UHGV virus genome: UHGV-0307316
DNA: 64,000 nt
Direction: 5' to 3' (one strand)
Source of the DNA: a virus
Shown here: positions 2,863 through 60,871 of the stretch, piece by piece
Layout of the letters: each line of letters begins with the position of its first letter
How positions within the stretch are numbered: position 1 is the stretch's first letter
Notes under the pieces: model-generated
What the model was told of the DNA's origin: nothing
What the model saw: only the letters and a program-made list of their open reading frames with translations
Database searches by the model: none
Translations under genes and position numbers: made by a program

Positions 2863-3362
2863 TGGCTGAAGTTATCTCTATTTCAAATGCTACACGAGTG
2901 CATTCGTATAGAGGTGTTCTTATTATCACTGACAAATTATCTGTAGGGGCTGGCTCAAGGGTCAGCCTTTCAGGTTATGTAAGTGATGGTGGAACCTCTG
3001 ACGTTTTCACTATTTGTAGGTTACTTGATTCTCCAATGAGTGGAAAACCGTTTATTTCAGGAAATTGTAGTGAAATTGTTAAAATTCCATTTGACAGTTC
3101 ATGCCTTTTGGGTGTAAAGTTATATAACTGCGAGAATAAACGTATCAATGTTAATAGCATTGAAGCCGCTTTCATTACCCTCGACACTGCATTTCAATCT
3201 CCAATGACAGTTAATAAAGAAACAAACAGACTTGAATACATTTTTTCACAAAATGATTACAAAGTACTTGTCAAAGGCAAAGTATATGATATGATTGTAA
3301 ATGTGGTAGATGAATCTGGTAACCATTCAACAGTCCTTAAACAAAAAGTAAGGTTTAATTAA
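2862..3362 (+). CDS. Hypothetical virion-module protein
   Basis: ORF in operon context between portal and protease, start overlapping previous stop. Confidence 0.4.
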   Translation: MAEVISISNATRVHSYRGVLIITDKLSVGAGSRVSLSGYVSDGGTSDVFTICRLLDSPMSGKPFISGNCSEIVKIPFDSSCLLGVKLYNCENKRINVNSIEAAFITLDTAFQSPMTVNKETNRLEYIFSQNDYKVLVKGKVYDMIVNVVDESGNHSTVLKQKVRFN

Positions 3363-45928: not shown

Positions 45929-46998
45929 TTAACCAGCACCCAATCTTTTTAGGTGGTGAGAGAAAAACTTTTGACTCACTTAATAAACACTACCCAAAAA
46001 TCTTTGAACTTTATAAACAACAAAAAGCACAAGACTGGTCAGAAGATGAGTTCACTTTTGAACAATCACGTCTTGATTTTGAGAGTGTCCCAGCATCAAT
46101 GTCAGGTGTAATGCTTGAGATTCTTAAGTGGCAGTGGGAAGCAGATACTCAAGTTGCTAAGAGCTTGGCATTTGCCTTTGCACCATTTATCTCTGATGAC
46201 ATCTATGCAACTGCAATTATGAAGCAGTCTGAGATTGAAAACCTACATGCCCTTACTTACTCAGAGATTGTAAGGCAATGTATTAAAAACCCTGAAACAA
46301 TCTTAGATGAGATTAACCAGAATGTTGCTGTGCAAGACCGATTAAAAACTGTGAATCGTGTTCTTGAAGAATTACTGGATGAAGGTATAAACTATCGTCT
46401 GAGTTATGTGCGTGATTCACTTCTGGACAAAGACCCTTTACACTTCCATAAAGTGATTCTGAAAGGGCTGTTTGCAGTGACTGCACTTGAAGGTATATCT
46501 TTTATGGCATCCTTTGCATGTACTTTTGCACTTGATGCTCAAGATAAATTTCAGGGTATTGCTCAAGCTGTGCAGAAGATTATGCTTGATGAAATCCTTC
46601 ACACTAAAATTGATATTGAAGTTTTAAAAGAAACTTTAAGAGATGATGAGTGGCAGAAAGCTTTTCAACAAATTCTTCCAGAGATTAAAGTAATCTTAGA
46701 TGAAGTAGTTGAAAGTGAAGAGAAATGGTCGTATTATATCTTCTCCGAAGGACGTGCTGTAGTTGGCTTAAATACAAAGCTTCTTCATGAGTGGGTTTAC
46801 TATAATGCTGCCCCACTGTATGATATGTTTGGCATTCCCAGAGATTTTGTAGCTCCTAAAGAACCACCTTTGAAGTACATGATTAAGAAGATGGAAATTG
46901 ATAAAGAGCAGAATGCTAATCAGGAGCAACAGAACGGTGCGTACCTATTGAATACTGTTGTAGATGATTTGAATAGTGGATTTTTAGAGGTTCCTTAA
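45925..46998 (+). CDS. nrdB: Ribonucleotide reductase class Ia small subunit
   Basis: Start at ATG 45925 preceded by AAAGGAG; di-iron/tyrosyl-radical type helices; directly follows nrdA. Confidence 0.85.
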   Translation: MINQHPIFLGGERKTFDSLNKHYPKIFELYKQQKAQDWSEDEFTFEQSRLDFESVPASMSGVMLEILKWQWEADTQVAKSLAFAFAPFISDDIYATAIMKQSEIENLHALTYSEIVRQCIKNPETILDEINQNVAVQDRLKTVNRVLEELLDEGINYRLSYVRDSLLDKDPLHFHKVILKGLFAVTALEGISFMASFACTFALDAQDKFQGIAQAVQKIMLDEILHTKIDIEVLKETLRDDEWQKAFQQILPEIKVILDEVVESEEKWSYYIFSEGRAVVGLNTKLLHEWVYYNAAPLYDMFGIPRDFVAPKEPPLKYMIKKMEIDKEQNANQEQQNGAYLLNTVVDDLNSGFLEVP

Positions 46999-47240
46999 TG
47001 ACTTATGTAATTTACTCCAAAACTGGATGCCCTCAGTGCGAGACTGCAAAGAATTTTGCAAAAGCTCGTGGTATTGACCATGTTGTGAGAATGTTAGGGC
47101 AGGACTATGAACTATCAGACCTGATTGATATTGCACAGATGCCAGTTCGTCAGATGCCATTCATCATGAAAACTGATGGGCAAAACCTAAAACCTGTTGG
47201 TACGCTACAGAATTTTATGGCAGAGGTGAATAATGCTTAA
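46998..47240 (+). CDS. Glutaredoxin/NrdH-like redoxin
   Basis: N-terminal CPQC active-site motif in an 80 aa protein; coupled to nrdB. Confidence 0.6.
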   Translation: MTYVIYSKTGCPQCETAKNFAKARGIDHVVRMLGQDYELSDLIDIAQMPVRQMPFIMKTDGQNLKPVGTLQNFMAEVNNA

Positions 47241-47439
47241 ACGCATTTGGGAAGGTTTGTTTGTTGATGCACCAGCTATTGTGATTGGTATGCTTATCGT
47301 TAACCTATTTACTGACTTTGAACAAGGTTCATTGTTTGGAGCCATGTTACTATGGGTTATCTTCGAAATATTAGAGATACAGTTAGGTATCACTGAAAAA
47401 CTAAGAGAACTCTTTGCGAAGTTTTCTAAAAAGATTTAA
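47233..47439 (+). CDS. Small membrane protein
   Basis: 68 aa with hydrophobic helices. Confidence 0.3.
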   Translation: MLKRIWEGLFVDAPAIVIGMLIVNLFTDFEQGSLFGAMLLWVIFEILEIQLGITEKLRELFAKFSKKI

Positions 47440-47487: not shown

Positions 47488-49632
47488 ATGAACAAAGTAC
47501 AGATTATTAAAAAGAATGGCTCACTTGAAGAACCTGATATCAAAAAAGTTTTAGCAGCAGTCACAAAGTCAGCTAACAGAGTTGGTTATAAAGAGCTTCC
47601 ACCAGATGTTACTCAAGCTCTTGAGTCAGCATTTATGAGGATTCTGGTAAAGTCCACTAAGCAGAATAATTTGCTAATTTCGGTAAATGATATTCACAGT
47701 ATTGTTGAGGGTGCTTTGGCAGAAGTCAATCACGAGATTTATGAGTCTTACTCAACATATAGAAATTACCGTAAAGAGGTTGCTCAAAATTGGGATGAAC
47801 TCTACCAGAAGACCAAAGATACACTCTTCTTAGGCGACCGAGAAAACGCTAATTTTGACAGCAGTTTAATTTCTACAAAAGGCTCAATTATTCGTGGTTA
47901 CCTGACTAAAGAAATCTTTAAACAGTACCATTTAACACCAGAGGAACTTGAAGCCATTGAAAAAGGATTTATCTATATCCATGATTTAAGAGACCTAATT
48001 TTTGGTGGTATCAACTGTTGCCTGTTTGACATTGGTAAAGTCCTGAAAGGTGGCTTTGAAATGTCTGGCATCGAATATTGTGAACCGAAGTCTGTGCTGT
48101 CAGCCTTACAGGTTATTGGTGATGTAGTTCTTTCAGCAACTGCACAGCAATTTGGTGGCTTTACTTTAGCAGAGATTGATAAGGTACTTGTACCGTATGC
48201 TAAGAAGTCTCTACGCTATCATGCTGAGAAAGCAGCATCTTATGGTATTCCTAAAGAACATTACCATAATTATGTCATGGAGCAGCTACAGATTGAATTA
48301 ACTCAAGGTTTTCAGTCACTTGAAATGAAACTGAACACTGTACCTTGCAGCCGTGGTGATTTCGCATTCACAACTTTAACATTCGGGTTACTTGACTCAG
48401 ATATGTCTAATGAAGACAACCGACTACAATACATGATTGCAAGTACTCTCCTAGATGTTCGTATGAATGGACAAGGTAAGAGCAAGAAGCCTGTTGTATT
48501 TCCTAAACTGGTTTATATTTATGACCAGAAGAGACATGATGAAAATATCTGTCAAGGTCACCTGTACAGTAAAGCTATTGAGTGTTGCTCTAAAGCAATG
48601 TATCCAGATTTCTTAAGTGTATCTGGTCATGGTGCTGTAGCAGAGGCTTTTGAGCGTTCTGGCAAGGTTATTTCGCCGATGGGTTGCCGAGCGTTCTTAT
48701 CTCCGTATCTTAACGAGAATGAGGAAGAGTTCTACGTTGGTCGTGCTAACATTGGTGCTGTATCTTTGAACTTACCAATGATTTACCAGTATTCTAAAGA
48801 GAATGGTTTAGATTTCTGGAAAGAGCTTGATAAGTACCTAGAGATGATTCGCAGCTTCCACAAGAAACGTTACGAAATGATTGCTAATATGCCAGCAAGT
48901 TCTAACCCTCTTGCATTCACACAAGGTGGTCTGTACAAAGGGACTAAGAAACCTACTGACAGGGTTGGTTGGGATATTGTGAAATCCTTCACAGCTTCTT
49001 TTGGGGTTACTGCTCTTGATGAGCTGTCTGTTCTTGCTGAAGGTAAACGACTTCATGAAGTTGGAAGCTATAGTTTTGCATACGATGTTCTGGCATACAT
49101 TAACATGAAAACTGAAGAGTTTAAGAACGAAGATGGCTTCCTGTATGCGGTATATGGCACTCCAGCAGAATCACTTTGTGGAACTCAGTTAAAACAGTTC
49201 AGGGATATGTTTGGTGTTATTAAAGGTGTCTCTGACAAGGAATACTTTACAAACAGTTTCCATATGAATGTTGCAGCAGACATCTCACCATTTGATAAGC
49301 AGGACTTAGAAGAACCATTCTTCCATATCTGTAGAGGTGGCAGAATCCAGTATGTAAGGGTAGCTAACCCAGAAAACTTACCAGCACTTAAAAGTTGTAT
49401 TACCAGAGGGATGTTGAAAGGTTTTTATCAGGGACTTAACTTTGACTTAGCAATCTGTGAGCATTGTGGTAACAGACCAAAATCAGATGTTGAAGAGTGT
49501 GAAGTTTGTCACTCACATGATATCTCTGTGATTAACAGAGTGTGTGGGTATCTTGGATGGACTAAGATTAAAGGTGAATCCCGAATGAACGATGCAAAAA
49601 TCGCTGAGATTCGTGATAGAGTCTCTATGTAA
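47488..49632 (+). CDS. nrdD: Anaerobic ribonucleoside-triphosphate reductase (class III)
   Basis: N-terminal ATP-cone, C-terminal Zn ribbon (CEHCGN...CEVCHS) and glycyl-radical motif RVCGY. Confidence 0.9.
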   Translation: MNKVQIIKKNGSLEEPDIKKVLAAVTKSANRVGYKELPPDVTQALESAFMRILVKSTKQNNLLISVNDIHSIVEGALAEVNHEIYESYSTYRNYRKEVAQNWDELYQKTKDTLFLGDRENANFDSSLISTKGSIIRGYLTKEIFKQYHLTPEELEAIEKGFIYIHDLRDLIFGGINCCLFDIGKVLKGGFEMSGIEYCEPKSVLSALQVIGDVVLSATAQQFGGFTLAEIDKVLVPYAKKSLRYHAEKAASYGIPKEHYHNYVMEQLQIELTQGFQSLEMKLNTVPCSRGDFAFTTLTFGLLDSDMSNEDNRLQYMIASTLLDVRMNGQGKSKKPVVFPKLVYIYDQKRHDENICQGHLYSKAIECCSKAMYPDFLSVSGHGAVAEAFERSGKVISPMGCRAFLSPYLNENEEEFYVGRANIGAVSLNLPMIYQYSKENGLDFWKELDKYLEMIRSFHKKRYEMIANMPASSNPLAFTQGGLYKGTKKPTDRVGWDIVKSFTASFGVTALDELSVLAEGKRLHEVGSYSFAYDVLAYINMKTEEFKNEDGFLYAVYGTPAESLCGTQLKQFRDMFGVIKGVSDKEYFTNSFHMNVAADISPFDKQDLEEPFFHICRGGRIQYVRVANPENLPALKSCITRGMLKGFYQGLNFDLAICEHCGNRPKSDVEECEVCHSHDISVINRVCGYLGWTKIKGESRMNDAKIAEIRDRVSM

Positions 49633-50684: not shown

Positions 50685-51170
50685 ATGAATTACATGGAGA
50701 TTCGACCATTTGATACAGCTAATGGTGAAGGGGTTCGTGTAAGCCTCTTCGTAGCTGGTTGTAAGCATCACTGCGAAGGCTGCTTTAACAGGGAGTCTTG
50801 GAAGTTTAATGCTGGTAAAGAGTTTACTTATGCAAACCTTTATGGCATTCTAAGACTTTTGGAAGATGACTCTTTAAGTGGGCTGTCTATCCTCGGTGGA
50901 GAACCATTGGATGACCGTAACATTGGAGAAGTCACTAAGATTTGTCAGAAGGTTAAATCAATCTATCCAGAGAAATCTATCTGGCTCTGGACAGGTTTTC
51001 AGTTACATGAAAAAATTCACCTTGATGTGATGAAATATGTTGACGTGGTGATTGATGGTAAGTATGATTCATCTAAACCAACAGTTAAACCATATCGTGG
51101 TTCTAATAACCAAAACCTCTGGAGAAAAGAGTATGGGTGGCAAGGTGATTGTCAGTGGAGAGCAGAGTGA
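50685..51170 (+). CDS. nrdG: Anaerobic RNR activating protein (radical SAM)
   Basis: CKHHCEGC radical-SAM cysteine motif near N-terminus; small size; near nrdD. Confidence 0.8.
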   Translation: MNYMEIRPFDTANGEGVRVSLFVAGCKHHCEGCFNRESWKFNAGKEFTYANLYGILRLLEDDSLSGLSILGGEPLDDRNIGEVTKICQKVKSIYPEKSIWLWTGFQLHEKIHLDVMKYVDVVIDGKYDSSKPTVKPYRGSNNQNLWRKEYGWQGDCQWRAE

Positions 51171-51909: not shown

Positions 51910-52425
51910 ATGTATCTGTCAAACCTAAAACGTTCTGCTGCAATGTCAGTGCTAAGACTCAGCTTTGAGGAACGTCAAGAGTTCATTGACTCCCACCAAT
52001 ACGACCCCTCAAACTCCAATCACATGATTCTCTGGAATCGTGAAAGTACTCGTGAAAGAGCACTATTCCGTTATTACCCACACTACACTATAGATAACCT
52101 GTATGAATTGTTTGTTGTGAAGAACACCATTACAGTGCTCAATAAACTTTGCAGATACACAGGTAGCCAATCCTTCACATTAGGTCACCACAAGCCTGTT
52201 ACAAAGGGTGGTGAGCATCACTGTGCAAACTGGTTTATCCAGACTAAGCTTGATAACCAGAAGCAAGGCGACAGTCTTCTAAGCATCCCTAAGATGACCT
52301 ACGAAGAGCAAGAGAAATATATCAAAAATAATATGCCAGATGTGCTTGACAACAACTATACAGATTTGGCAATATCTCTCCTGTTGAAGTTCGAGACAGT
52401 TTATAGGGCAACTTACAATGGCTAA
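51910..52425 (+). CDS. HNH endonuclease (putative)
   Basis: LGHHKPVTKGGEHHCANWFIQTKLDNQKQG resembles the HNH core (His pair, Asn, Cys). Confidence 0.45.
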   Translation: MYLSNLKRSAAMSVLRLSFEERQEFIDSHQYDPSNSNHMILWNRESTRERALFRYYPHYTIDNLYELFVVKNTITVLNKLCRYTGSQSFTLGHHKPVTKGGEHHCANWFIQTKLDNQKQGDSLLSIPKMTYEEQEKYIKNNMPDVLDNNYTDLAISLLLKFETVYRATYNG

Positions 52426-52696
52426 AGAGAAGTGGGAAATTTTACCATTAGTCAGTGAAGGTGGTAATGGTTGTGAAATGTACATGATACGTGGTCATGT
52501 TCCAGAACCAATTGCACTTGAGATGGTAAACAACTTTACAGATGGTTCTTACAAAGACTTAGGAGAGCCAACTATAAAGCATCAATGGGTAAAACCTGTA
52601 CCAGACAGCACAGGTAACTGTAGTGTACTTTACCACGTTGTAGACCCTGTAAAATGCAAATCTGCAATGGCAGTAACAAACGTAACCTTTGATTGA
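52418..52696 (+). CDS. Hypothetical protein
   Basis: 92 aa ORF. Confidence 0.3.
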   Translation: MAKEKWEILPLVSEGGNGCEMYMIRGHVPEPIALEMVNNFTDGSYKDLGEPTIKHQWVKPVPDSTGNCSVLYHVVDPVKCKSAMAVTNVTFD

Positions 52697-53589
52697 GAGA
52701 CAAAACTATGAAAACATCTATCCGTGTTACAGTTCATTCACCAACTAAAGGGACTCACGAAGAAGAGTTTAACATCGTCCAATTTCCTTCTGGTGAGATT
52801 GGTGGACATTTTTCACCAGAGTTTGTTGATTTTACTGCTTATGCTGCATCATCCATCAACAACGTGATTATGATTATAAAGGGTTATGACAAAGACACAT
52901 TATTTGCTGTGGCACTTGCTAAAGAGGTAATTGATGATTTAGTACCTCATAAGTTTGCTATGAAGACTGCTATCTTTTACTATTTGCCAAATGCACGTTA
53001 CGACCGTCACATGTTTAAAGGTGATGCAGCAGCTTTGAAAGTGTTTGCACAACAGGTTAATGCAATGGGTTTTGATGCAGTCTGTGCAGTTGACCCTCAT
53101 AGTTACGTTCCAGATAACCTTTTCAATTGCTTCCAGAGTATTCCTCAAAAGGAGATTGCAGTCCATTACGCAAATGACCCTCTGATTGATTACTTAGTAG
53201 CCCCAGATGCAGGTGCTTCTAAGAAGATTGCAGAGACTGCTAAAGAGGTGGATAAACCATATATCACAATGTCTAAGGTGCGAAATCTTAAGACTGGAGA
53301 AATCACTGGTATGCGAATCCTTGACGATGTTGATTTGACCGATAAAACCGTCATGATTCTTGATGATATCTGTGATGGTGGTCGAACCTTCGTAGAGGCA
53401 GCTAAACACCTACGTGAAGCAGGTGCAAAACGTGTAGAGCTTTATGTAACACATGGTATCTTCTCTAAAGATGTTGAAAACCTTCTTGACAATGGTATCG
53501 ACCATATTTACACTACAAACTCTTTAGGCGAAGCTAAAGACCGTGGCTTAACACATTACAGTCAAGTTACTGTAGCAAACCTTGATTGA
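52693..53589 (+). CDS. Ribose-phosphate pyrophosphokinase family protein (Prs-like; candidate ADP-ribose pyrophosphokinase Adps)
   Basis: PRPP-synthetase-type C-terminal half: VAPDAGA, phosphoribosyl-binding loop VMILDDICDGGRT, YVTHGIFS. Confidence 0.75.
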   Translation: MRDKTMKTSIRVTVHSPTKGTHEEEFNIVQFPSGEIGGHFSPEFVDFTAYAASSINNVIMIIKGYDKDTLFAVALAKEVIDDLVPHKFAMKTAIFYYLPNARYDRHMFKGDAAALKVFAQQVNAMGFDAVCAVDPHSYVPDNLFNCFQSIPQKEIAVHYANDPLIDYLVAPDAGASKKIAETAKEVDKPYITMSKVRNLKTGEITGMRILDDVDLTDKTVMILDDICDGGRTFVEAAKHLREAGAKRVELYVTHGIFSKDVENLLDNGIDHIYTTNSLGEAKDRGLTHYSQVTVANLD

Positions 53590-53636: not shown

Positions 53637-55418
53637 ATGACTAAATCACTTTATGCAGTACCAGCAGGTTTAAACGCGGATGCTTACAAGTCTGGCCATG
53701 TTTACCAGTACCCTAGTGCAACAGAATACTTGATGTTCAACCTGACACCACGTAGTGACAAATGGTTTAACAGCCCTTTAGCAATTGACGGTGTAGTGGC
53801 TTTTGGTATTCAACGTTTTGTTAAAGATTACTTGATAGACCACTGGAACGCCACTTTCTTTGAACGTGATAAAAAAGAAGCAATTGACGAAATCTTAGAA
53901 GTCATGAATGGTGTTCTGGGTAAAGATGCTATCGGTCGAGAGCATTGGGAAGCACTTCACGACTTAGGTTATCTACCAGTTGAAGTATACGCGGTAGAAG
54001 AAGGTACAGTTGTCCCTATGCGTGTCCCAATGATTGTCTTCCAGAACACTGTTTCAGGTTTCCATTGGGTAGCAGGTTATCTGGAAGATGCTTTCTCTGC
54101 TGAGATTTGGAAGGCTTGCACTATTGCAACTATTGCATTGCATTACAAACGCATCTGTAAGAAGTGGGCTGACCTTACTTGTGACAACGACTTACATCTG
54201 CCCTATCAGTGCCATGACTTTGCTATGCGTGGTATGTCCGGCTTTACTGATGACGCATTTAACGCTGTAGGTCACTTAACCAGCTTTAAAGGAACCGATA
54301 GCTTCCCTGCTGTATACACGGCTAAACGCATCTATGGACAGTCTTACCCAATCTCTGATATTGGTAGTTCTGTACCAGCCACTGAACACTCTGTAATGTG
54401 TGCAAACATTGCTTGGGAAGGTGGTAATGAATTGATTGAAGAAGAAAGACGCTTTAAAGGTGAGTTACAAACCTTCCGTCGTTTCTTAACAGAAACTTAC
54501 CCAACTGGTATTGCAAGTATTGTTTCAGATACTTATAACTTCTGGAGAACTGTGTCAGAAATCTTACCAGCACTCCGTAAAGAAATTATGGAACGTGATG
54601 GTAAACTGGTAATTCGCCCTGACTCTGGAGACCCTGTACATATTGTCACAGGTTATAAAGCAATCCACTTAGAGTGTGCTAAAAAGGCTTATTACGAGCA
54701 CCTAAGCAAGCTTGAAGCCAGCGACACAATGTTGAATGCTGTTCTGAACATGAAGCTTGAAAACATCAACTATGGTATTGCTGGATGGCTACTGTCAGAA
54801 GGCTACGAAATGGTTGTTGACAGAGAAGACTTTGAAGTAGCCGATACAGTGTTGCTGAAAGATGCTTACATCAACGGCTCTGCAAACGTTGTAACACGTC
54901 CTGTAGCGGAGATTGATGGAGCTATTAAGACACTGTACAACATCTTTGGGGGAACTATTAACTCTAAAGGGTTTAAGGTACTGGATGAGCACATTGGCCT
55001 TATCTATGGCGACTCTATCACGCTGGAACGTGCAAACGAAATCCTGAAGCGTCTGTATGAAATGGGTTTTGCAAGCTCTAACGTAGTGTTTGGTGTAGGC
55101 TCTTACACTTACCAGTACATGACTCGTGACACCTTTGCATTTGCTGTTAAAGCAACTCTTGCAAGCATTGGTGGTAAAGAGATTATGCTTGCAAAAGACC
55201 CTAAAACAGATAGTGGTGTTAAGAAGTCTGCTTTTGGTGGTGTAGTACCTATGTGGAATGGTGATAAGTTGAAAGCTGTAGATGGCTATGGATTCCAGAG
55301 CTTTGCAGATGTACTTGAACATCCAGCTTGTGCTCTACGTTTAGTCTTTAGTGACTCTGAGCAGTATGGTTACACATCTCTTGGTGATATTCGAAATAAT
55401 ATTGACAAGCAGCTTTAA
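53637..55418 (+). CDS. Nicotinamide phosphoribosyltransferase family protein (NadV-like; candidate nicotinamide ADPR transferase Namat)
   Basis: 593 aa ORF with NAMPT-like N-terminus (NADAYKSGHVYQYP); immediately downstream of Prs-like gene. Confidence 0.7.
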   Translation: MTKSLYAVPAGLNADAYKSGHVYQYPSATEYLMFNLTPRSDKWFNSPLAIDGVVAFGIQRFVKDYLIDHWNATFFERDKKEAIDEILEVMNGVLGKDAIGREHWEALHDLGYLPVEVYAVEEGTVVPMRVPMIVFQNTVSGFHWVAGYLEDAFSAEIWKACTIATIALHYKRICKKWADLTCDNDLHLPYQCHDFAMRGMSGFTDDAFNAVGHLTSFKGTDSFPAVYTAKRIYGQSYPISDIGSSVPATEHSVMCANIAWEGGNELIEEERRFKGELQTFRRFLTETYPTGIASIVSDTYNFWRTVSEILPALRKEIMERDGKLVIRPDSGDPVHIVTGYKAIHLECAKKAYYEHLSKLEASDTMLNAVLNMKLENINYGIAGWLLSEGYEMVVDREDFEVADTVLLKDAYINGSANVVTRPVAEIDGAIKTLYNIFGGTINSKGFKVLDEHIGLIYGDSITLERANEILKRLYEMGFASSNVVFGVGSYTYQYMTRDTFAFAVKATLASIGGKEIMLAKDPKTDSGVKKSAFGGVVPMWNGDKLKAVDGYGFQSFADVLEHPACALRLVFSDSEQYGYTSLGDIRNNIDKQL

Positions 55419-55429
55419 AAGTATATGAT
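55402..55429 (+). promoter_or_regulatory. Candidate promoter inside 3' end of NadV-like gene
   Basis: TTGACAAG (55402-55409), ~16-nt spacer, TATGAT. Confidence 0.35.
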
Positions 55430-55431
55430 AA

Positions 55432-55455
55432 AAGGCTCCCGTAGGAGCCTTTTTA
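55432..55455 (+). terminator. Rho-independent terminator after NadV-like gene
   Basis: GGCTCC-CGTA-GGAGCC followed by TTTTT. Confidence 0.6.
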
Positions 55456-55471
55456 ATTTCTGGAGAAGACT

Positions 55472-55807
55472 ATGAAAATCAAAGAAATGAACATCAACAT
55501 TGTCTTAGAAGAACGTTGGGAGAACATCAAGAAGCATGAAGATGGTCATAAGTTCCTTAACAAAATTTTAGTAGCAGCTAAAGAAGAACTGGCTGGCAAG
55601 GTTGCAGCAGCAATCACAATAAAGGTTTGTGTAAAAGGTCTTCCACAACATCACCAATTTGCACTTGACGAGTTTAAAGAAAGCTTCTACAATCCAAACA
55701 AACAGATGCTTGAAAGTAACTTTGCAGTATCTACAAGTATCGTTCATGACAGAAGCTTTATCCTTTACAAGAATATGAGAGGTGAGTCATGCAAGCATAT
55801 TGGATAG
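55472..55807 (+). CDS. Hypothetical protein
   Basis: 111 aa ORF. Confidence 0.3.
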   Translation: MKIKEMNINIVLEERWENIKKHEDGHKFLNKILVAAKEELAGKVAAAITIKVCVKGLPQHHQFALDEFKESFYNPNKQMLESNFAVSTSIVHDRSFILYKNMRGESCKHIG

Positions 55808-55965
55808 AAATTTTACTGTCACTTGGTAGTGTAGCAGTATTTGTTTACCTCCTTTGTAAGTACTTTGCAGAGCACAAAAAATGTGACTACTGTAATGGAG
55901 AGGGGTACATAAGGGCAGGATGTTGTCCTATGTGTGGTGGTTCTGGTAAAATGTTTAATAAGTAA
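55789..55965 (+). CDS. Unlisted small ORF (58 aa): membrane-anchored protein with two DnaJ-type CxxCxGxG zinc-finger motifs
   Basis: ATG at 55789 preceded by GAGGTGAG; translation MQAYWIEILLSLGSVAVFVYLLCKYFAEHKKCDYCNGEGYIRAGCCPMCGGSGKMFNK; below the 60-aa ORF-track cutoff. Confidence 0.45.
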   Translation: MQAYWIEILLSLGSVAVFVYLLCKYFAEHKKCDYCNGEGYIRAGCCPMCGGSGKMFNK

Positions 55966-55993
55966 TTTAACAGTAAACTGAGAGGAAAGTATT

Positions 55994-58360
55994 ATGCGCA
56001 TGGTAAATGACCACGCAGAAGTGATTAAGAGTTCAACTTCTTTAGAGACGTCTCAAGCACAGATTACAATGACACCTGAGATGTTCAGCCTTTTGAGTTC
56101 TGGTGTATATACCTTTAAAGAAAGGGCAGTGATTCGTGAACTGTCATGTAACGCAGTAGATGCTCAGAAAGAAGCTGGAAAAGAGAACATCCCATTCCAT
56201 GTGCATTTACCTACTCGTTTTGAGCCTTACTTCGAAGTTCGTGATTTTGGAACTGGATTGACTCATGATAAAGTTATGAGTTTGTACCTAAACTATGGAG
56301 CTTCTACGAAGAATGACTCTAATGACTACATTGGTGCAATGGGTATCGGCTCAAAGTCACCATTTGCAATTGCTCAGTCATTCACAGTATCTAGTTATGT
56401 TGACGGTGTTGTTAATAAGTACTCTGTTTATCTTGAGAATGGTATCCCTCAAGTAACTAAGCTGACAACTAACCAAACAAAAGAACCTAATGGTTTAGCT
56501 GTACGTGTGGCAGTTGCTGACCACCGTATCTCAAAGTTCTTTGAAGAAGCTGGGAATGTGTACTCATACTTCACTGTAAAACCAGAAAGTAATATTGAGT
56601 ACGACGATGTATTAGCAGATATGAACGTAATTGCCCGTGAAGAAGGTGTTTATGATGCCATGATTCATAAGCACAGCTGGCGTTCTAGTGATAACAGGAC
56701 AGAGTTTAATGTGGTGATGGGTAACATTGCCTATCCAGTGAACATGGAAGCGTTACTTGGTGATGATTTCTTCAAAGTCTTGCCAGAGTTTTTCCGTAGG
56801 AGCGTAGACCTTGTAAACATCTACATGCCTATTGGTTCAGTTGCTATTGCAGCTTCTCGTGAAGCATTGCAGATGAATGACACGACAAAAAATGTTATCA
56901 TTGAGGCTACTAAAAAGATAACTGAAGCAATTACAAAGGATGTTATCAAGAAAGTTAATAGCCAACCTACACTCATGGATGCTGCACAGGCTTATGCTGA
57001 GTTACGTTTGAACTCACGAGAGATGTTTAATGCTGTGTGTCCAAAGCTAGAGTGGGGTGGCGTTAAGCTTGATTCTCTGGAAGAAGAATTGCTAAACATT
57101 CGTCGTGGAATTATCTACGCAGAAGACGGCTCAGTCATTTATGAACGTGATGGTAAAGGCAATATTAAGGTTGATAGGAACGGGAACAATATACCTAAAG
57201 TAGATTATCTTTATGACCCAGTTGCTTATGTCAAGTTCAACTCTTTAGAGAGTAAGATTCGTGCAACATCGCTTTCCTACACTCAAGAGGCAAGTATGTT
57301 CAATATCTTTGGTGCAATGCGTAAAAGCCAAATTGAACAGTTTTTGTTCGTGATTAATGACCGTCGCAATAAAAATGGTACTGAGAAGACTGTAGGCCGC
57401 AATCAGATTCTGCGTGGTGCATGTCGAGACTACGCCAGTGAGTCAAGTCTGTTTCACAGATACAATGGTATTGTGTTTGTATTCTCGACTGAAAAAGAGT
57501 TAGACGACCTAATCAATCTACACAAACTTGATAAAAGCTTGTTAAAGATTGTGAAAATGTCTGATAAGGAGCACCATTACCAGCGCAAAGAAGCTGTAAG
57601 GGGTGTTGTAAAACTCTGGAAAGCTGTTCCAGCAGAAGGTGTAGCTTCCTATAAAGAGGTTTCAGAGGACTTAGACACAATTGAAGAACCTCAGCTTTAC
57701 ATTAAGGCAATTGGTGACACAGTTGATGGTGAATGTTTTTGCTCATCCCCAGAAGATGTAGCTAAGTCAGTTGCTAATGTTATTGGAAAGACAGTCTATG
57801 TTTTCCGAAAAGCAAATTGGAAAAAGATACCAGAAGACTGGATTGAAGTAGATGAGAAGCTCTTGAACGACAGCTTAACTGATGTTCATTGGATTAATCA
57901 TAACAGGTATACGACACGCATCTACATGAATGGTGTTCTTGACCTTACAAGTAGCTGGATTATTGCCAGAAACTTTACGTTCAATAACAGGAAGATTTCT
58001 CGTGGCTATTGCTATTCACGGGATACAAACAAAACTATCTTCCTAGAAGGTAATGAAGAGGCTGTAGAGGCAATGTTTGGTAAAATCCAGTATGTTGCTG
58101 CACCATTTGCATACACTTACACTATTAGTGTGTTGAAAACTTTGAAAGATTGTCTTGACAACGATACAAAGCTTTACAAGAAAATTAAGAAAGCTGGTGA
58201 CCGTATGGTTATTAAGGTGACAAACTACCTTTCAAAAAGAAAACAAGAAAACTTCTTGCTTTCTCATTTAGATTGGAATAAAGTGTCACCCATCGAAGTG
58301 AGTAAGTTCTTAGGTTTTGATGTGAAGTGTGTTCCAGAAGGAACTACAGTTTACGATTAA
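55994..58360 (+). CDS. rIIA-like protein with N-terminal GHKL-type ATPase domain
   Basis: Bergerat-fold motifs: N-box ELSCNAVDA (ExxxNAxDA), G1 box DFGTGLT, G2 box GAMGIGSKS; ~790 aa as for rIIA-family proteins. Confidence 0.5.
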   Translation: MRMVNDHAEVIKSSTSLETSQAQITMTPEMFSLLSSGVYTFKERAVIRELSCNAVDAQKEAGKENIPFHVHLPTRFEPYFEVRDFGTGLTHDKVMSLYLNYGASTKNDSNDYIGAMGIGSKSPFAIAQSFTVSSYVDGVVNKYSVYLENGIPQVTKLTTNQTKEPNGLAVRVAVADHRISKFFEEAGNVYSYFTVKPESNIEYDDVLADMNVIAREEGVYDAMIHKHSWRSSDNRTEFNVVMGNIAYPVNMEALLGDDFFKVLPEFFRRSVDLVNIYMPIGSVAIAASREALQMNDTTKNVIIEATKKITEAITKDVIKKVNSQPTLMDAAQAYAELRLNSREMFNAVCPKLEWGGVKLDSLEEELLNIRRGIIYAEDGSVIYERDGKGNIKVDRNGNNIPKVDYLYDPVAYVKFNSLESKIRATSLSYTQEASMFNIFGAMRKSQIEQFLFVINDRRNKNGTEKTVGRNQILRGACRDYASESSLFHRYNGIVFVFSTEKELDDLINLHKLDKSLLKIVKMSDKEHHYQRKEAVRGVVKLWKAVPAEGVASYKEVSEDLDTIEEPQLYIKAIGDTVDGECFCSSPEDVAKSVANVIGKTVYVFRKANWKKIPEDWIEVDEKLLNDSLTDVHWINHNRYTTRIYMNGVLDLTSSWIIARNFTFNNRKISRGYCYSRDTNKTIFLEGNEEAVEAMFGKIQYVAAPFAYTYTISVLKTLKDCLDNDTKLYKKIKKAGDRMVIKVTNYLSKRKQENFLLSHLDWNKVSPIEVSKFLGFDVKCVPEGTTVYD

Positions 58361-58439: not shown

Positions 58440-59549
58440 ATGACTACTAAAACTAAAGCACAGATTGACGCAGAAATTTACAAACTGGTTAAAGAAGGTA
58501 AGCTGACTAAAACAGCTATTGCACAGAAATTTAATACTTCAACCCGTTCAGTCGGTCGTGCTGTAGAGCGTCATGAAGCAACATTAAAAGGGAATAAGAA
58601 GGTAACTTCTACACCAGCTACGAAGACTTTGAAGCAAGTTGCTAAGACCTTTAAAAAGAAAGCTGACAAACCAGTTGAAAAGGTTGTTAAAGATTCTGTA
58701 CAGAAAGCTCCAGTAAATAAACTGCACGAAGCTATGCAGAAAGATGACAAGATTGAGTACATGATTACTGGCGACTCTGTAATTATGACTTACGGTTCAG
58801 AATCTGAAATTGTTGAGTCTACTCATCCGAACTATCAAGAGATTGTAGTTCATGTTGTGAAAGGTGAGTTCAAGAAAGCCTTTGAACTGATGAACATTCG
58901 TAAGTCTATCGAAAACTTCACGCAGGGAGCTATCACAATCAAAGGTGATAAGCTATTCTACGGTGCTGTTGAGATGCGTTCTACTCTGGTTGACCGTATC
59001 CTTCACATGATGAAGACTGGTGATAAAGGTTTTGAACGACTTGTAATGTTCTTCGAAAAACTGATGGAAAACCCATCTAAAGATTCTGTAGAACAACTTT
59101 GGGGATTCATATCTCACCTTGATGTTGAAATTGATGAAGAAGGCTACATCATTGGTTGGAAGAAAGTCTCTACTCGTGAAGGCAAGCTGGTTGACTCCCG
59201 CACCTGCAAAGTACCTAATGATTTGGGTAACATTGTAGAAATGCCACGTTGGATGGTTGATAATAACCGTAACGTGACTTGCTCTCAAGGTCTTCACGTT
59301 GGTGCTTGGGATTATGTTCGTTACTTCTCAGGTGATACAATTCTGAAGGTTCGTGTCCATCCACGAGACGTTGTATCCGTACCAACTGATTACAACGATA
59401 TGAAGATGCGCTCGTCTCGTTATGAAGTTGCAGCAATCGTTGATAATCAACGTAAAGTACTGAAAGCATGGGATGGCAAGACTGAAGCTTTGCATGTCAT
59501 CGTTGGCACTGCTGGTGAACTTATCTCTGAGCGTAAACGTGAAATCTAA
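58440..59549 (+). CDS. Putative rIIB-like protein (by position after rIIA-like gene)
   Basis: 369 aa ORF immediately after rIIA-like gene; Lys-rich N-terminus; no diagnostic motif. Confidence 0.3.
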   Translation: MTTKTKAQIDAEIYKLVKEGKLTKTAIAQKFNTSTRSVGRAVERHEATLKGNKKVTSTPATKTLKQVAKTFKKKADKPVEKVVKDSVQKAPVNKLHEAMQKDDKIEYMITGDSVIMTYGSESEIVESTHPNYQEIVVHVVKGEFKKAFELMNIRKSIENFTQGAITIKGDKLFYGAVEMRSTLVDRILHMMKTGDKGFERLVMFFEKLMENPSKDSVEQLWGFISHLDVEIDEEGYIIGWKKVSTREGKLVDSRTCKVPNDLGNIVEMPRWMVDNNRNVTCSQGLHVGAWDYVRYFSGDTILKVRVHPRDVVSVPTDYNDMKMRSSRYEVAAIVDNQRKVLKAWDGKTEALHVIVGTAGELISERKREI

Positions 59550-59649: not shown

Positions 59650-60198
59650 ATGAAGAAATTGATTCTAGGTTTGTGCTTAATGTTTACAGCACACTTATCT
59701 TATGCAGTTGACTGCCCAGAGCTATCAATTAGCCAAAAAGTAAACATGTTAAAAGCTTACCAGTATGGTGAGAACAACATGGGTAAAGGTTGGGGTATCA
59801 CTCTAGCTGCTATAGCCTTACAAGAGTCAGAGTTAGGTCTGAAGGTAGAGAATAAAAAGACACATGATTATGGTATTTTCCAGAATCACTTGAAGACTGT
59901 TGTAAAGCGTAACAAAATTAGTCCTAATATGGCTAAAAAGAAACTCTTAAAAGACTTTAACTATGCTGCGAAGGAAACTCACAAAGAGCTTGAGTTTTGG
60001 ACAAAGGTGCATGGTCAGCCAAAGTCAAAGAAGACTTTACAAAAAGTTTTAGCATCATATAATGCTGGGTATTCGTACAAAATCCCTAAAGCTAAGAAAT
60101 ATTCTCAAGATGTCTATAACAACATGAAAGTCATTGCTCAATGTGAATTTGCAACAAACATTTCTAAGGTAAACCATGAAAAAATTAAAAAAGTCTGA
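59650..60198 (+). CDS. Lytic transglycosylase (SLT domain) with signal peptide; candidate endolysin
   Basis: Signal peptide MKKLILGLCLMFTAHLSYA; SLT motifs QESEL (ES), DYGIFQ (GLMQ-like), SYNAGYS (AYNxG). Confidence 0.7.
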   Translation: MKKLILGLCLMFTAHLSYAVDCPELSISQKVNMLKAYQYGENNMGKGWGITLAAIALQESELGLKVENKKTHDYGIFQNHLKTVVKRNKISPNMAKKKLLKDFNYAAKETHKELEFWTKVHGQPKSKKTLQKVLASYNAGYSYKIPKAKKYSQDVYNNMKVIAQCEFATNISKVNHEKIKKV

Positions 60199-60871
60199 TG
60201 AAGTACTGTGTCATGCTTACGACTTACATCCTCATGAGTTAGGTCTTGATTCCTGTGTATGGACTCCAGAACAGTGTAGGGATTTTGAAGACACTGCAAG
60301 AGAAGTTGTATGCTCACTCGAAGAGTTCCACACATCAGAGCCAATTGTGAATGTTGTAGATAAAGAGACTGGACAAACTATAGGTGTAAGTCGTGATAGC
60401 TTAGTCATAGTCAATAAAGACCTTGTAGAAAAAGGTAACCTCATCTTAGCAGATATTGATGGTGTTCTTACAAATTTTAATCACGAAGATTGCTCAACGG
60501 AATTGACTGATGGGTCATTCTCACAGTACACTAATCTTCTTGACTCTGTAAGAGCAAAACCAACGTATGTCTTTAGTATTATTGATGCAATTGCTAATCA
60601 TGCTGCCATTGGACTCTTGACAGCGAGAGGTGAATCTCAGAGAATACCTACTGAGATGTTTTTAAGGCACAATATAGAGCATGATTACTTGCTTTTTATG
60701 CGTGGTTTTGGAACTAACTCTATAAGTGCAGAAAGTTTGAAAGTGAGGATGATTCAGTCTTGCATTCTTCCTTACTTTAATATAGTATGTTTTATAGAAG
60801 ATACAGAGAAGAATGTTCAGAAGGTAAACAGAATCCTTCCACACATTAAAACCATGTTAGTTAAACACTGA
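60176..60871 (+). CDS. HAD-like hydrolase domain protein (putative phosphatase)
   Basis: HAD motif I-like LILADIDGVLT, motif II-like LLTARGE, acidic motif CFIEDTEKN; N-terminal extension unusual. Confidence 0.35.
   Translation: MKKLKKSDEVLCHAYDLHPHELGLDSCVWTPEQCRDFEDTAREVVCSLEEFHTSEPIVNVVDKETGQTIGVSRDSLVIVNKDLVEKGNLILADIDGVLTNFNHEDCSTELTDGSFSQYTNLLDSVRAKPTYVFSIIDAIANHAAIGLLTARGESQRIPTEMFLRHNIEHDYLLFMRGFGTNSISAESLKVRMIQSCILPYFNIVCFIEDTEKNVQKVNRILPHIKTMLVKH

Follow-up and report, generated by a model that had tools for sequence, protein, structure and literature searches.

A conserved 58-residue membrane microprotein with a predicted zinc knuckle encoded directly upstream of rIIA in Felix O1-like phages

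A stretch of 64,000 nucleotides (nt) from the virus genome UHGV-0307316, below called the window, carries on its plus strand at 55789-55965 a small gene for a microprotein of 58 amino acids (aa), in which an N-terminal hydrophobic helix is followed by two CxxCxGxG motifs. We are highly confident that this is a genuine protein-coding gene under purifying selection, and hold it for equally secure that its cysteines are invariant, its motif glycines nearly so and its neighbourhood conserved. The gene is already in the databases (Felix01p243, PHROG 3931) and is not new. Taken as a whole, we read the product as an early, host-conditional, membrane-tethered zinc-knuckle protein binder of the Felix O1-like phages (Ounavirinae), a reading on which the evidence leaves us evenly divided. 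Zinc binding and an orientation with the N-terminus outside and the C-terminus inside (N-out/C-in) are its probable parts, while the protein-binding and conditional role is more tentative and falls somewhat short of an even chance. The elements of the gene are as follows.

55789..55965 (+): microprotein coding sequence, 58 codons plus stop; orthologue of Felix01p243, Bas63 g83 and SUSP1 agp080; PHROG 3931
55779..55785 (+): Shine-Dalgarno sequence GAGGTGA, a 7-base consensus match located within the 3' end of the preceding 111-aa gene
55798..55860 (+): single transmembrane helix, codons 4-24, from Kyte-Doolittle hydropathy and AlphaFold2 (AF2); predicted N-out/C-in
55882..55950 (+): CDYCNGEG-x6-CPMCGGSGK, codons 32-54, two CxxCxGxG motifs; predicted Zn(Cys)4 knuckle

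The gene and its conservation

Translation of 55789-55965 (+) gives MQAYWIEILLSLGSVAVFVYLLCKYFAEHKKCDYCNGEGYIRAGCCPMCGGSGKMFNK (58 aa). The ATG at 55789 is the first start codon past an in-frame TGA (55783-55785) lying one codon upstream, and there is therefore no alternative start further upstream. The original prediction had described an open reading frame (ORF) with a good ribosome-binding site, and this was confirmed: GAGGTGA is well spaced from the start, the last base of its GAGG core lying 6 nt ahead of the ATG. Sites of the GGAG/GAGG type are found at equal distance in Moogle, mistaenkt, FL04 and P778, and a ribosome-binding site is annotated at the microprotein start in Salmonella phage Meda. 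The overlap with the 3' end of the upstream 111-aa ORF (55472-55807) that had been noticed earlier measures 19 nt, is identical in Moogle, mistaenkt and SUSP1, and makes translational coupling of the two genes likely. A 60-aa ORF runs antisense to the microprotein gene (55819-56001, minus strand). It had been suspected to be spurious, and we regard it as such because in 7 of the 10 full-length Felixounavirus relatives its frame is interrupted by a stop at codon 8.

CDYCNGEG and CPMCGGSG are the only matches to the pattern C..C.G.G in all six frames of the window; no further ORF with this pattern, and hence no second copy, was found there, and a pair of such motifs occurred in none of 200 shuffles of the window.

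A nucleotide comparison of the region gave 224 phage records with 80-99% identity. Almost all are from Felixounavirus, that is Felix O1-like myophages whose hosts are Escherichia, Salmonella and Shigella, and the window is Felixounavirus. Approximately 213 of the 224 records encode a product at least 90% identical (tblastn), and about 95% keep the ORF intact. Across 11 distinct Felixounavirus alleles the ratio of non-synonymous to synonymous polymorphism (pN/pS) is 0.094, and 21 of the 33 variable sites are at codon position 3. Orthologues at 26-60% identity are found in six further lineages.

Mooglevirus (Moogle)
Suspvirus (mistaenkt, SUSP1)
Kolesnikvirus (Erwinia phage Rouille, phi63_307)
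Yersinia phage P778
T4-like Krischvirus (FL04)
A few metagenomic contigs

In both of our alignments (A1 and A2) the residues C32, C35, G37, G39, C46, C49, G51 and G53 are invariant, and the single departure outside them is a change of G39 to Asp in SUSP1. Conservation of the frame and of its cysteines in related phages, which had been proposed as a check on the gene, is thus kept down to 26% identity. Frameshifted or truncated alleles are present in a few relatives (P0003-P0007) and could reflect either sequencing errors or occasional gene loss. Just 5' of the first Cys codon there is a run of six A residues (55876-55881), and P0005, P0006 and P0007 lose the frame at about this point; the frame of P0003 breaks later, near a run of G.

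The gene had been called unlisted. This is correct for the ORF list from which it was first noticed, which had a cutoff of 60 aa, but it does not hold for GenBank, where relatives already have the gene annotated. It is labelled "putative membrane protein, similar to Felix01p243" in KhF1 (ANZ51858), "possible membrane protein" in Meda (Meda_002), "membrane protein" in JH2 (gp023) and "putative membrane protein" in Bas63, whose g83 product is 96.6% identical to the window protein. PHROG 3931, a family of unknown function, is matched at E 1.5e-33 by residues 1-58 over profile positions 1-59 of 59. The orthologues in this family (Felix01p243, Bas63 g83, SUSP1 agp080, KhF1 ANZ51858, JH2 gp023) are 47-100% identical, equal in length, neighbours and motifs, and show no material difference from the window gene; their database labels say just "hypothetical" or "putative membrane protein". 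The orthologue in Erwinia phage Rouille (OQ818707; L027, 2971-3135) is labelled "dnaJ chaperone protein", which is an over-annotation. A search of the literature on phage CxxCxGxG membrane proteins and on Felixounavirus transcriptomics gave no direct study of the gene, and no discussion of a zinc knuckle in the PHROG 3931 orthologues was found in the literature searched.

Membrane helix and zinc knuckle

The N-terminal transmembrane helix that had been predicted is borne out by two methods. The best 17-residue hydrophobic stretch covers residues 6-22 with a mean Kyte-Doolittle value of 2.26, and AF2, run with a family alignment of 12 sequences, gives a helix over residues 3-28 and, past it, a small knuckle (mean pLDDT, the predicted local distance difference test, 74.6). 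E7 and S11 within the helix are nearly invariant in alignment A2, a hint that the helix has a role beyond anchoring. None of the 15 family members has a Lys or Arg N-terminal of the helix, while 13 of them have one within 10 residues past it; the N-terminal tail is 3-7 residues long and contains an acidic residue in 8 of the 15. Because of this charge bias and the positive-inside rule the knuckle is placed in the cytoplasm, near the membrane, a location that suits a zinc-thiolate site. A lipoprotein or a cleavable signal peptide was considered and rejected, as there is no positively charged N-region, the residue at -1 of C23 is Leu, and C23 is not conserved.

The two motifs occupy residues 32-39 and 46-53 and supply four cysteines, C32, C35, C46 and C49. 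The spacing between the second and the third Cys is 11 in 12 of the 15 members and 12 in Moogle, SUSP1 and family member P0023. The family profile matches the Cys-rich domain of Escherichia coli DnaJ (1EXK) at E 8.7e-11 in two stretches, without gaps over motifs 3-4, and Anti-TRAP (2BX9) at E 5.8e-3. When the AF2 model was compared with the PDB by Foldseek, the top three hits were all Anti-TRAP chains, with a root-mean-square deviation (rmsd) of 0.6-0.7 Å over 24-26 residues (0.6 Å to 3LD0) and 38-40% identity; the E-values of 0.15-0.5 are not significant alone because the module is so short. The best fold match is thus Anti-TRAP and the best sequence match the DnaJ Cys-rich domain. The Pfam and NCBIfam matches all fall under their curated cutoffs, with 18.3 bits against 32.7 for PF00684, 11.7 against 32 for the Anti-TRAP family PF15777, and 14.4 against 65 for RtpA (NF058604).

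The CxxCxGxG repeat is common to the phage protein and to DnaJ/Hsp40 (PF00684, 1EXK), and the description of the motifs as DnaJ-type is well founded as far as the 1EXK profile match goes. It is a likeness of motif only, and the protein is not a DnaJ. DnaJ has four repeats, a J domain, a G/F region and C-terminal substrate-binding domains, whereas the phage protein possesses two repeats but no other part of DnaJ; Pfam and NCBIfam scans of the 58 aa gave no match to a J domain, and its N-terminus is the transmembrane helix. Membership of the DnaJ family was rejected on these grounds together with the scores under cutoff. In DnaJ the two zinc centres are interleaved and formed by motifs 1 and 4 and by motifs 2 and 3. 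Since just two motifs are present in the phage protein, we infer that its four cysteines must form one zinc site, as in Anti-TRAP.

As a predicted single-zinc module the modelled protein most closely resembles Anti-TRAP (RtpA of Bacillus; 2BX9, 3LCZ, 3LD0). Both are approximately 53-58 residues long with a core of two DnaJ-type CxxC motifs, and by our own count the spacing between the second and the third Cys of Anti-TRAP is also 11, consistent with the ungapped profile alignment. Anti-TRAP works purely by binding and blocking another protein. It differs from the phage protein in being soluble, with a C-terminal helix that drives assembly into trimers and dodecamers, whereas the phage protein has an N-terminal transmembrane helix, ends 4-5 residues past the second motif and shows no C-terminal helix in the AF2 model. 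The organisms and the biology of Anti-TRAP (regulation of trp) are likewise unrelated. An anchored counterpart is the Arabidopsis protein FIP, which binds the FtsH5 protease and carries, past its membrane anchor, two CxxCxGxG motifs that face the stroma (PMC5915565). When compared by described architecture, mature FIP and the phage protein, in its predicted orientation, share a hydrophobic anchor followed by a C-terminal motif pair on the cytoplasm-equivalent side (PMC5915565), but FIP comes from a plant, has a transit peptide and is the longer of the two. We class the phage protein with the J-less DnaJ-like zinc-knuckle proteins, as a new and minimal member from phages.

Pairs of CxxCxGxG motifs occur elsewhere in viral sequences. 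The IMG/VR contigs L018-L026 and most of the 2158 matches in the representative library have them in large or multi-repeat proteins that are not orthologues; in L018-L025, near position 3001 of each, short-spaced pairs lie inside proteins of 242-779 aa encoded by unrelated viral contigs. Within phage proteins the knuckle looks like a mobile module that is carried as an insert.

Neighbourhood of the gene

The genes and signals surrounding the microprotein gene are listed below.

47488-49632: NrdD
50685-51170: NrdG
51910-52425: homologue of Bas63 g77 (GIY-YIG)
52693-53589: Prs-like (Adps)
53637-55418: Nampt-like (Namat)
55402..55429 (+): sigma-70-type promoter TTGACA-16-TATGAT at the end of the Namat gene (consensus scan, 11/12)
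55430..55453 (+): GC-rich hairpin followed by a T run (terminator scan; -15.2 kcal/mol, z -2.6)
55472..55807 (+): 111-aa gene of unknown function (PHROG 4262), overlapping the start of the microprotein gene by 19 nt
55994-58360 (+): rIIA, PHROG 612, E 1.4e-188; 97.1% identical to Bas63 g84
58440-59549: rIIB
60176-60871: polynucleotide kinase (homologue of Bas63 g87)

The promoter at 55402-55429 is likely, from its sequence and position, to serve as an early promoter for the 111-aa gene, the microprotein gene and rIIA. The adjoining hairpin (55430-55453), annotated as a terminator in phage Meda, would terminate Namat transcripts, and transcripts from the promoter would begin in its 5' arm. The pair of promoter and hairpin is kept in Moogle, mistaenkt and SUSP1 (Mooglevirus and Suspvirus). 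A search of 55000-56500 against Rfam gave nothing above the gathering score, and PADLOC gave nothing meaningful.

The 111-aa gene and the microprotein gene are kept together in Felixounavirus, Mooglevirus and Suspvirus; in Kolesnikvirus they are separated by a 10-nt gap instead of overlapping, and Yersinia phage P778 has no 111-aa gene. AF2 predicts a beta-alpha-beta-alpha-beta-beta fold for the 111-aa protein (pLDDT 72.8). A topology like that of the C-terminal domain of IF3 was considered and not trusted, as the matches were weak (E 2e-3, TM-score 0.42, rmsd 5 Å). The Bas63 orthologue of this gene, g82, has no data in the part of the published PhageMaP screen covered here. In the window no extra gene lies between Namat and the 111-aa gene, while Bas63 has the 114-aa g81 at this place (L037, 15509-15853) and a gene of 71-73 aa is found there in Moogle (L004, 1973-2194) and SUSP1 (agp078; L031, 11613-11828; PHROG 2375). 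Judged from these sequences, the gap looks like an insertion hot spot just past the promoter and the terminator. Two genes upstream of the microprotein gene in Rouille there is a 150-aa gene labelled as a ProQ-like RNA chaperone (L027, 2179-2631), which has no counterpart there in the window.

In Felixounavirus rIIA starts 28 nt past the microprotein stop, and a promoter comparison found no promoter between the two genes in this genus; because so few nucleotides separate them they are probably co-transcribed there. A promoter-like site is present between them in Moogle, SUSP1, mistaenkt and Rouille. In four Ounavirinae genera and in P778, rIIA is the gene that directly follows the microprotein gene. 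Since the arrangement is kept in all four genera, and the root of the Ounavirinae falls between Kolesnikvirus and the remaining genera (PMC8594841), it is likely to be ancestral in the subfamily.

The T4-like relatives have the gene in another place. In Krischvirus, and in one divergent T4-like contig, its start lies 11 nt within the end of an NrdH-like glutaredoxin gene, and the gp55 region follows downstream. T4 itself gave no homologue by tblastn with the Krischvirus form, and T4 rIIA.1, considered as a counterpart for its equivalent position, was rejected as an unrelated soluble helical protein. The glutaredoxin gene of the window (46998-47240) is approximately 8.5 kb away from the microprotein gene. 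A 68-aa ORF (47233-47439) that contains two hydrophobic stretches but lacks a Cys motif starts 8 nt inside the end of the glutaredoxin gene, so that the slot after glutaredoxin holds this ORF in the window and the zinc-knuckle microprotein in Krischvirus, the two having no motif in common.

Several genes of the window are 77-98% identical in protein to Bas63 g77, g79-g80, g84-g85 and g87. According to the part of the PhageMaP study covered here, Bas63 g77 counters the Ec67 retron, g79/g80 counter Sir2-HerA, the Ec86 retron and hhe, and g84/g85 (rIIA/B) counter QatABCD (bioRxiv 10.1101/2024.10.10.617714); g79-80 (NARP1, encoding Adps and Namat) rebuild NAD+ (bioRxiv 10.1101/2024.02.11.579819). 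Because of the identity to these genes, this part of the window is a counter-defence island, experimentally supported in a close relative. The labels "Prs" and "NadV" in most records are older than the NARP1 finding.

Published screens and possible roles

Two genome-wide screens contain orthologues of the gene. In the CRISPRi-ART screen of SUSP1, agp080, which that work equates with Felix01p243 and PHROG 3931, was targeted by 7 guides and scored "Not Fit" (fitness 1.05, Kolmogorov-Smirnov p 0.11), while rIIA scored "Semi-Fit" (PMC11879866). For Bas63 g83 the PhageMaP results below (bioRxiv 10.1101/2024.10.10.617714) have three replicates per sheet and come from part of the defence-host sheets.

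S17: 0.25, 0.11, 0.48
Further lab-host sheet: 1.27, -0.07, -0.17
TerY-P: 0.10, 0.51, 1.16
Defence sheet, AVAST Type 4 by position: 0.39, 0.66, 0.88
Sheet where g79/g80 become essential: 1.37, 1.16, 0.51
qatABCD: 0.77, 0.66, 0.81

Structural and replication genes in these sheets are mostly at approximately -1 or lower, and on qatABCD the values were -1.26/-1.30/-1.61 for g84 (rIIA) and -1.05/-2.46/-2.45 for g85 (rIIB). It follows from the sheets covered that g83 was not important on S17 or on any of the four defence-panel hosts represented (bioRxiv 10.1101/2024.10.10.617714). Within the hosts covered by the published screens the orthologues are almost certainly dispensable.

As mentioned above, we read the gene as encoding an early, membrane-tethered protein binder with a host-conditional role. 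Host RNA polymerase would transcribe it early from the promoter at 55402-55429, together with the 111-aa gene and rIIA. The product would be a bitopic inner-membrane protein with a periplasmic N-terminal tail of 3-7 residues, uncharged or acidic, and one membrane-crossing helix with a conserved Glu near its outer end and a conserved Ser. A linker of 2-12 residues, measured between the 17-residue hydrophobic window and the first Cys, would lead to a two-motif module of 23 residues on the cytoplasmic face. There C32, C35, C46 and C49 would hold one zinc ion in a centre like that of Anti-TRAP and like each of those of DnaJ. At the inner face of the membrane the module may then bind a host or defence protein, or perhaps one of the phage, and so retain, block or recruit it, with an effect confined to certain hosts, as with the neighbours NARP1 and rIIA/B. 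Action by binding would be the most likely mode because such knuckles are protein-binding surfaces, and the closest mechanistic precedents, as we see them, are Anti-TRAP in soluble and FIP in anchored form, both pure binders.

Several points weigh against this proposal. The orientation has the charge bias as its sole basis, two family members have no Lys or Arg close after the helix, and multi-repeat CxxCxGxG proteins with a classical, positively charged signal peptide are known from bacteria, so that the motif can be extracytoplasmic. To these come the non-significant Foldseek E-values, the domain scores under cutoff, the broken alleles in P0003-P0007, and the location of the Krischvirus gene away from rII, after glutaredoxin. 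The finding that g83 was not important on the hosts covered belongs here as well, and a role in counter-defence is based purely on genomic association.

A more specific form of the proposal is that the microprotein would be a new counter-defence or host-takeover factor, a minimal membrane-tethered knuckle that captures a membrane-proximal host protein and matters only in hosts bearing that target. It fits with the location inside the island of g77, NARP1 and rIIA/B and with the apparent exchange of the gene between Ounavirinae and the T4-like Krischvirus, and candidate targets would be the FtsH protease, in analogy to FIP, or an effector of a membrane-acting abortive-infection system. We nevertheless consider it unlikely at present.

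Two other roles are less probable still, and to about the same degree. In the first, the microprotein would serve the RIIA/RIIB complex as a dedicated subunit or membrane anchor and would tether or assemble the RII proteins encoded downstream. In favour of this, T4 RIIA and RIIB are membrane-associated without clear transmembrane segments, and rIIA immediately follows the gene in every Ounavirinae genus examined as well as in P778, which lost the 111-aa gene and retained the adjacency to rIIA; in Felixounavirus the distance is 28 nt without an intervening promoter. Against this, g83 knockouts are fit on QatABCD in the sheet covered, while g84 and g85 become essential there, and rIIA/B therefore work without the microprotein, at least against QatABCD. 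Within the limits of these Bas63 data, the idea of an obligatory rIIA/B cofactor is largely rejected. The Krischvirus gene is moreover far from rII, after glutaredoxin, T4 has rIIA/B but neither a homologue nor, in rIIA.1, a related protein, and a separate promoter-like site precedes rIIA in Moogle, SUSP1, mistaenkt and Rouille.

The second is a redox-active or periplasmic Cys-rich domain that would act as a thiol-disulfide oxidoreductase or a redox switch or, with a periplasmic C-terminus, form structural disulfides, perhaps together with the phage glutaredoxin. The overlap with the glutaredoxin end in Krischvirus and in the divergent T4-like contig invites this idea, the Cys-rich domain of DnaJ and the plant J-less proteins LQY1 and CYO1 have disulfide isomerase activity in vitro, and the bacterial multi-repeat proteins with classical signal peptides referred to above would be a precedent for a periplasmic location. 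The charge bias, however, points to a cytoplasmic C-terminus in 13 of the 15 members, and none of the 15 shows a positively charged N-region. The glutaredoxin gene of the Ounavirinae is approximately 8.5 kb off and followed by a different small membrane ORF, and the invariant glycines and the fixed 11-residue spacing are features of a zinc-binding fold.

It is highly improbable that the microprotein is a lysis or superinfection-exclusion factor, that is a holin, an antiholin or an Imm-like blocker of DNA entry. Its small size, single transmembrane helix and charged C-terminus would be compatible with such a role, it adjoins genes historically called "lysis inhibitors", and the lysis genes of the Ounavirinae are poorly defined (supplementary discussion of CRISPRi-ART, PMC11879866). 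The gene belongs, however, to an early-type unit between Namat and rIIA, far from the endolysin gene, and holin, spanin and endolysin are annotated elsewhere in relatives. The predicted periplasmic tail has just 3-7 residues, and knock-down or knock-out of orthologues gave no lysis-type fitness defect in the data covered. A conserved zinc knuckle would be atypical, as we know of no holin that has one.

That the ORF is a chance frame or a fossil without a functional product, for which its very short length, the lack of a phenotype in the covered parts of two genome-wide screens and the frameshifted or truncated alleles (several of them at the A6 run) could be cited, is close to negligible in view of the pN/pS of 0.094 and third-position bias, the Cys/Gly pattern invariant in alignments at about 26-60% identity over six phage lineages, the conserved ribosome-binding site, the absence of the motif pair from 200 shuffles and the intact ORF in about 95% of the related genomes.

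Felix O1-like phages are used in diagnostics and biocontrol of Salmonella and E. coli, and most of their small genes are without known function. The gene analyzed here encodes a very compact combination of a membrane anchor and a DnaJ/Anti-TRAP-type knuckle, which is kept across a phage subfamily and is common to some T4-like phages. On present evidence it is an ordinary, already annotated accessory gene, whose annotation is refined here rather than a discovery made. Since it lies between three counter-defence modules proven by experiment, the gene can reasonably be considered a candidate host-specific factor.

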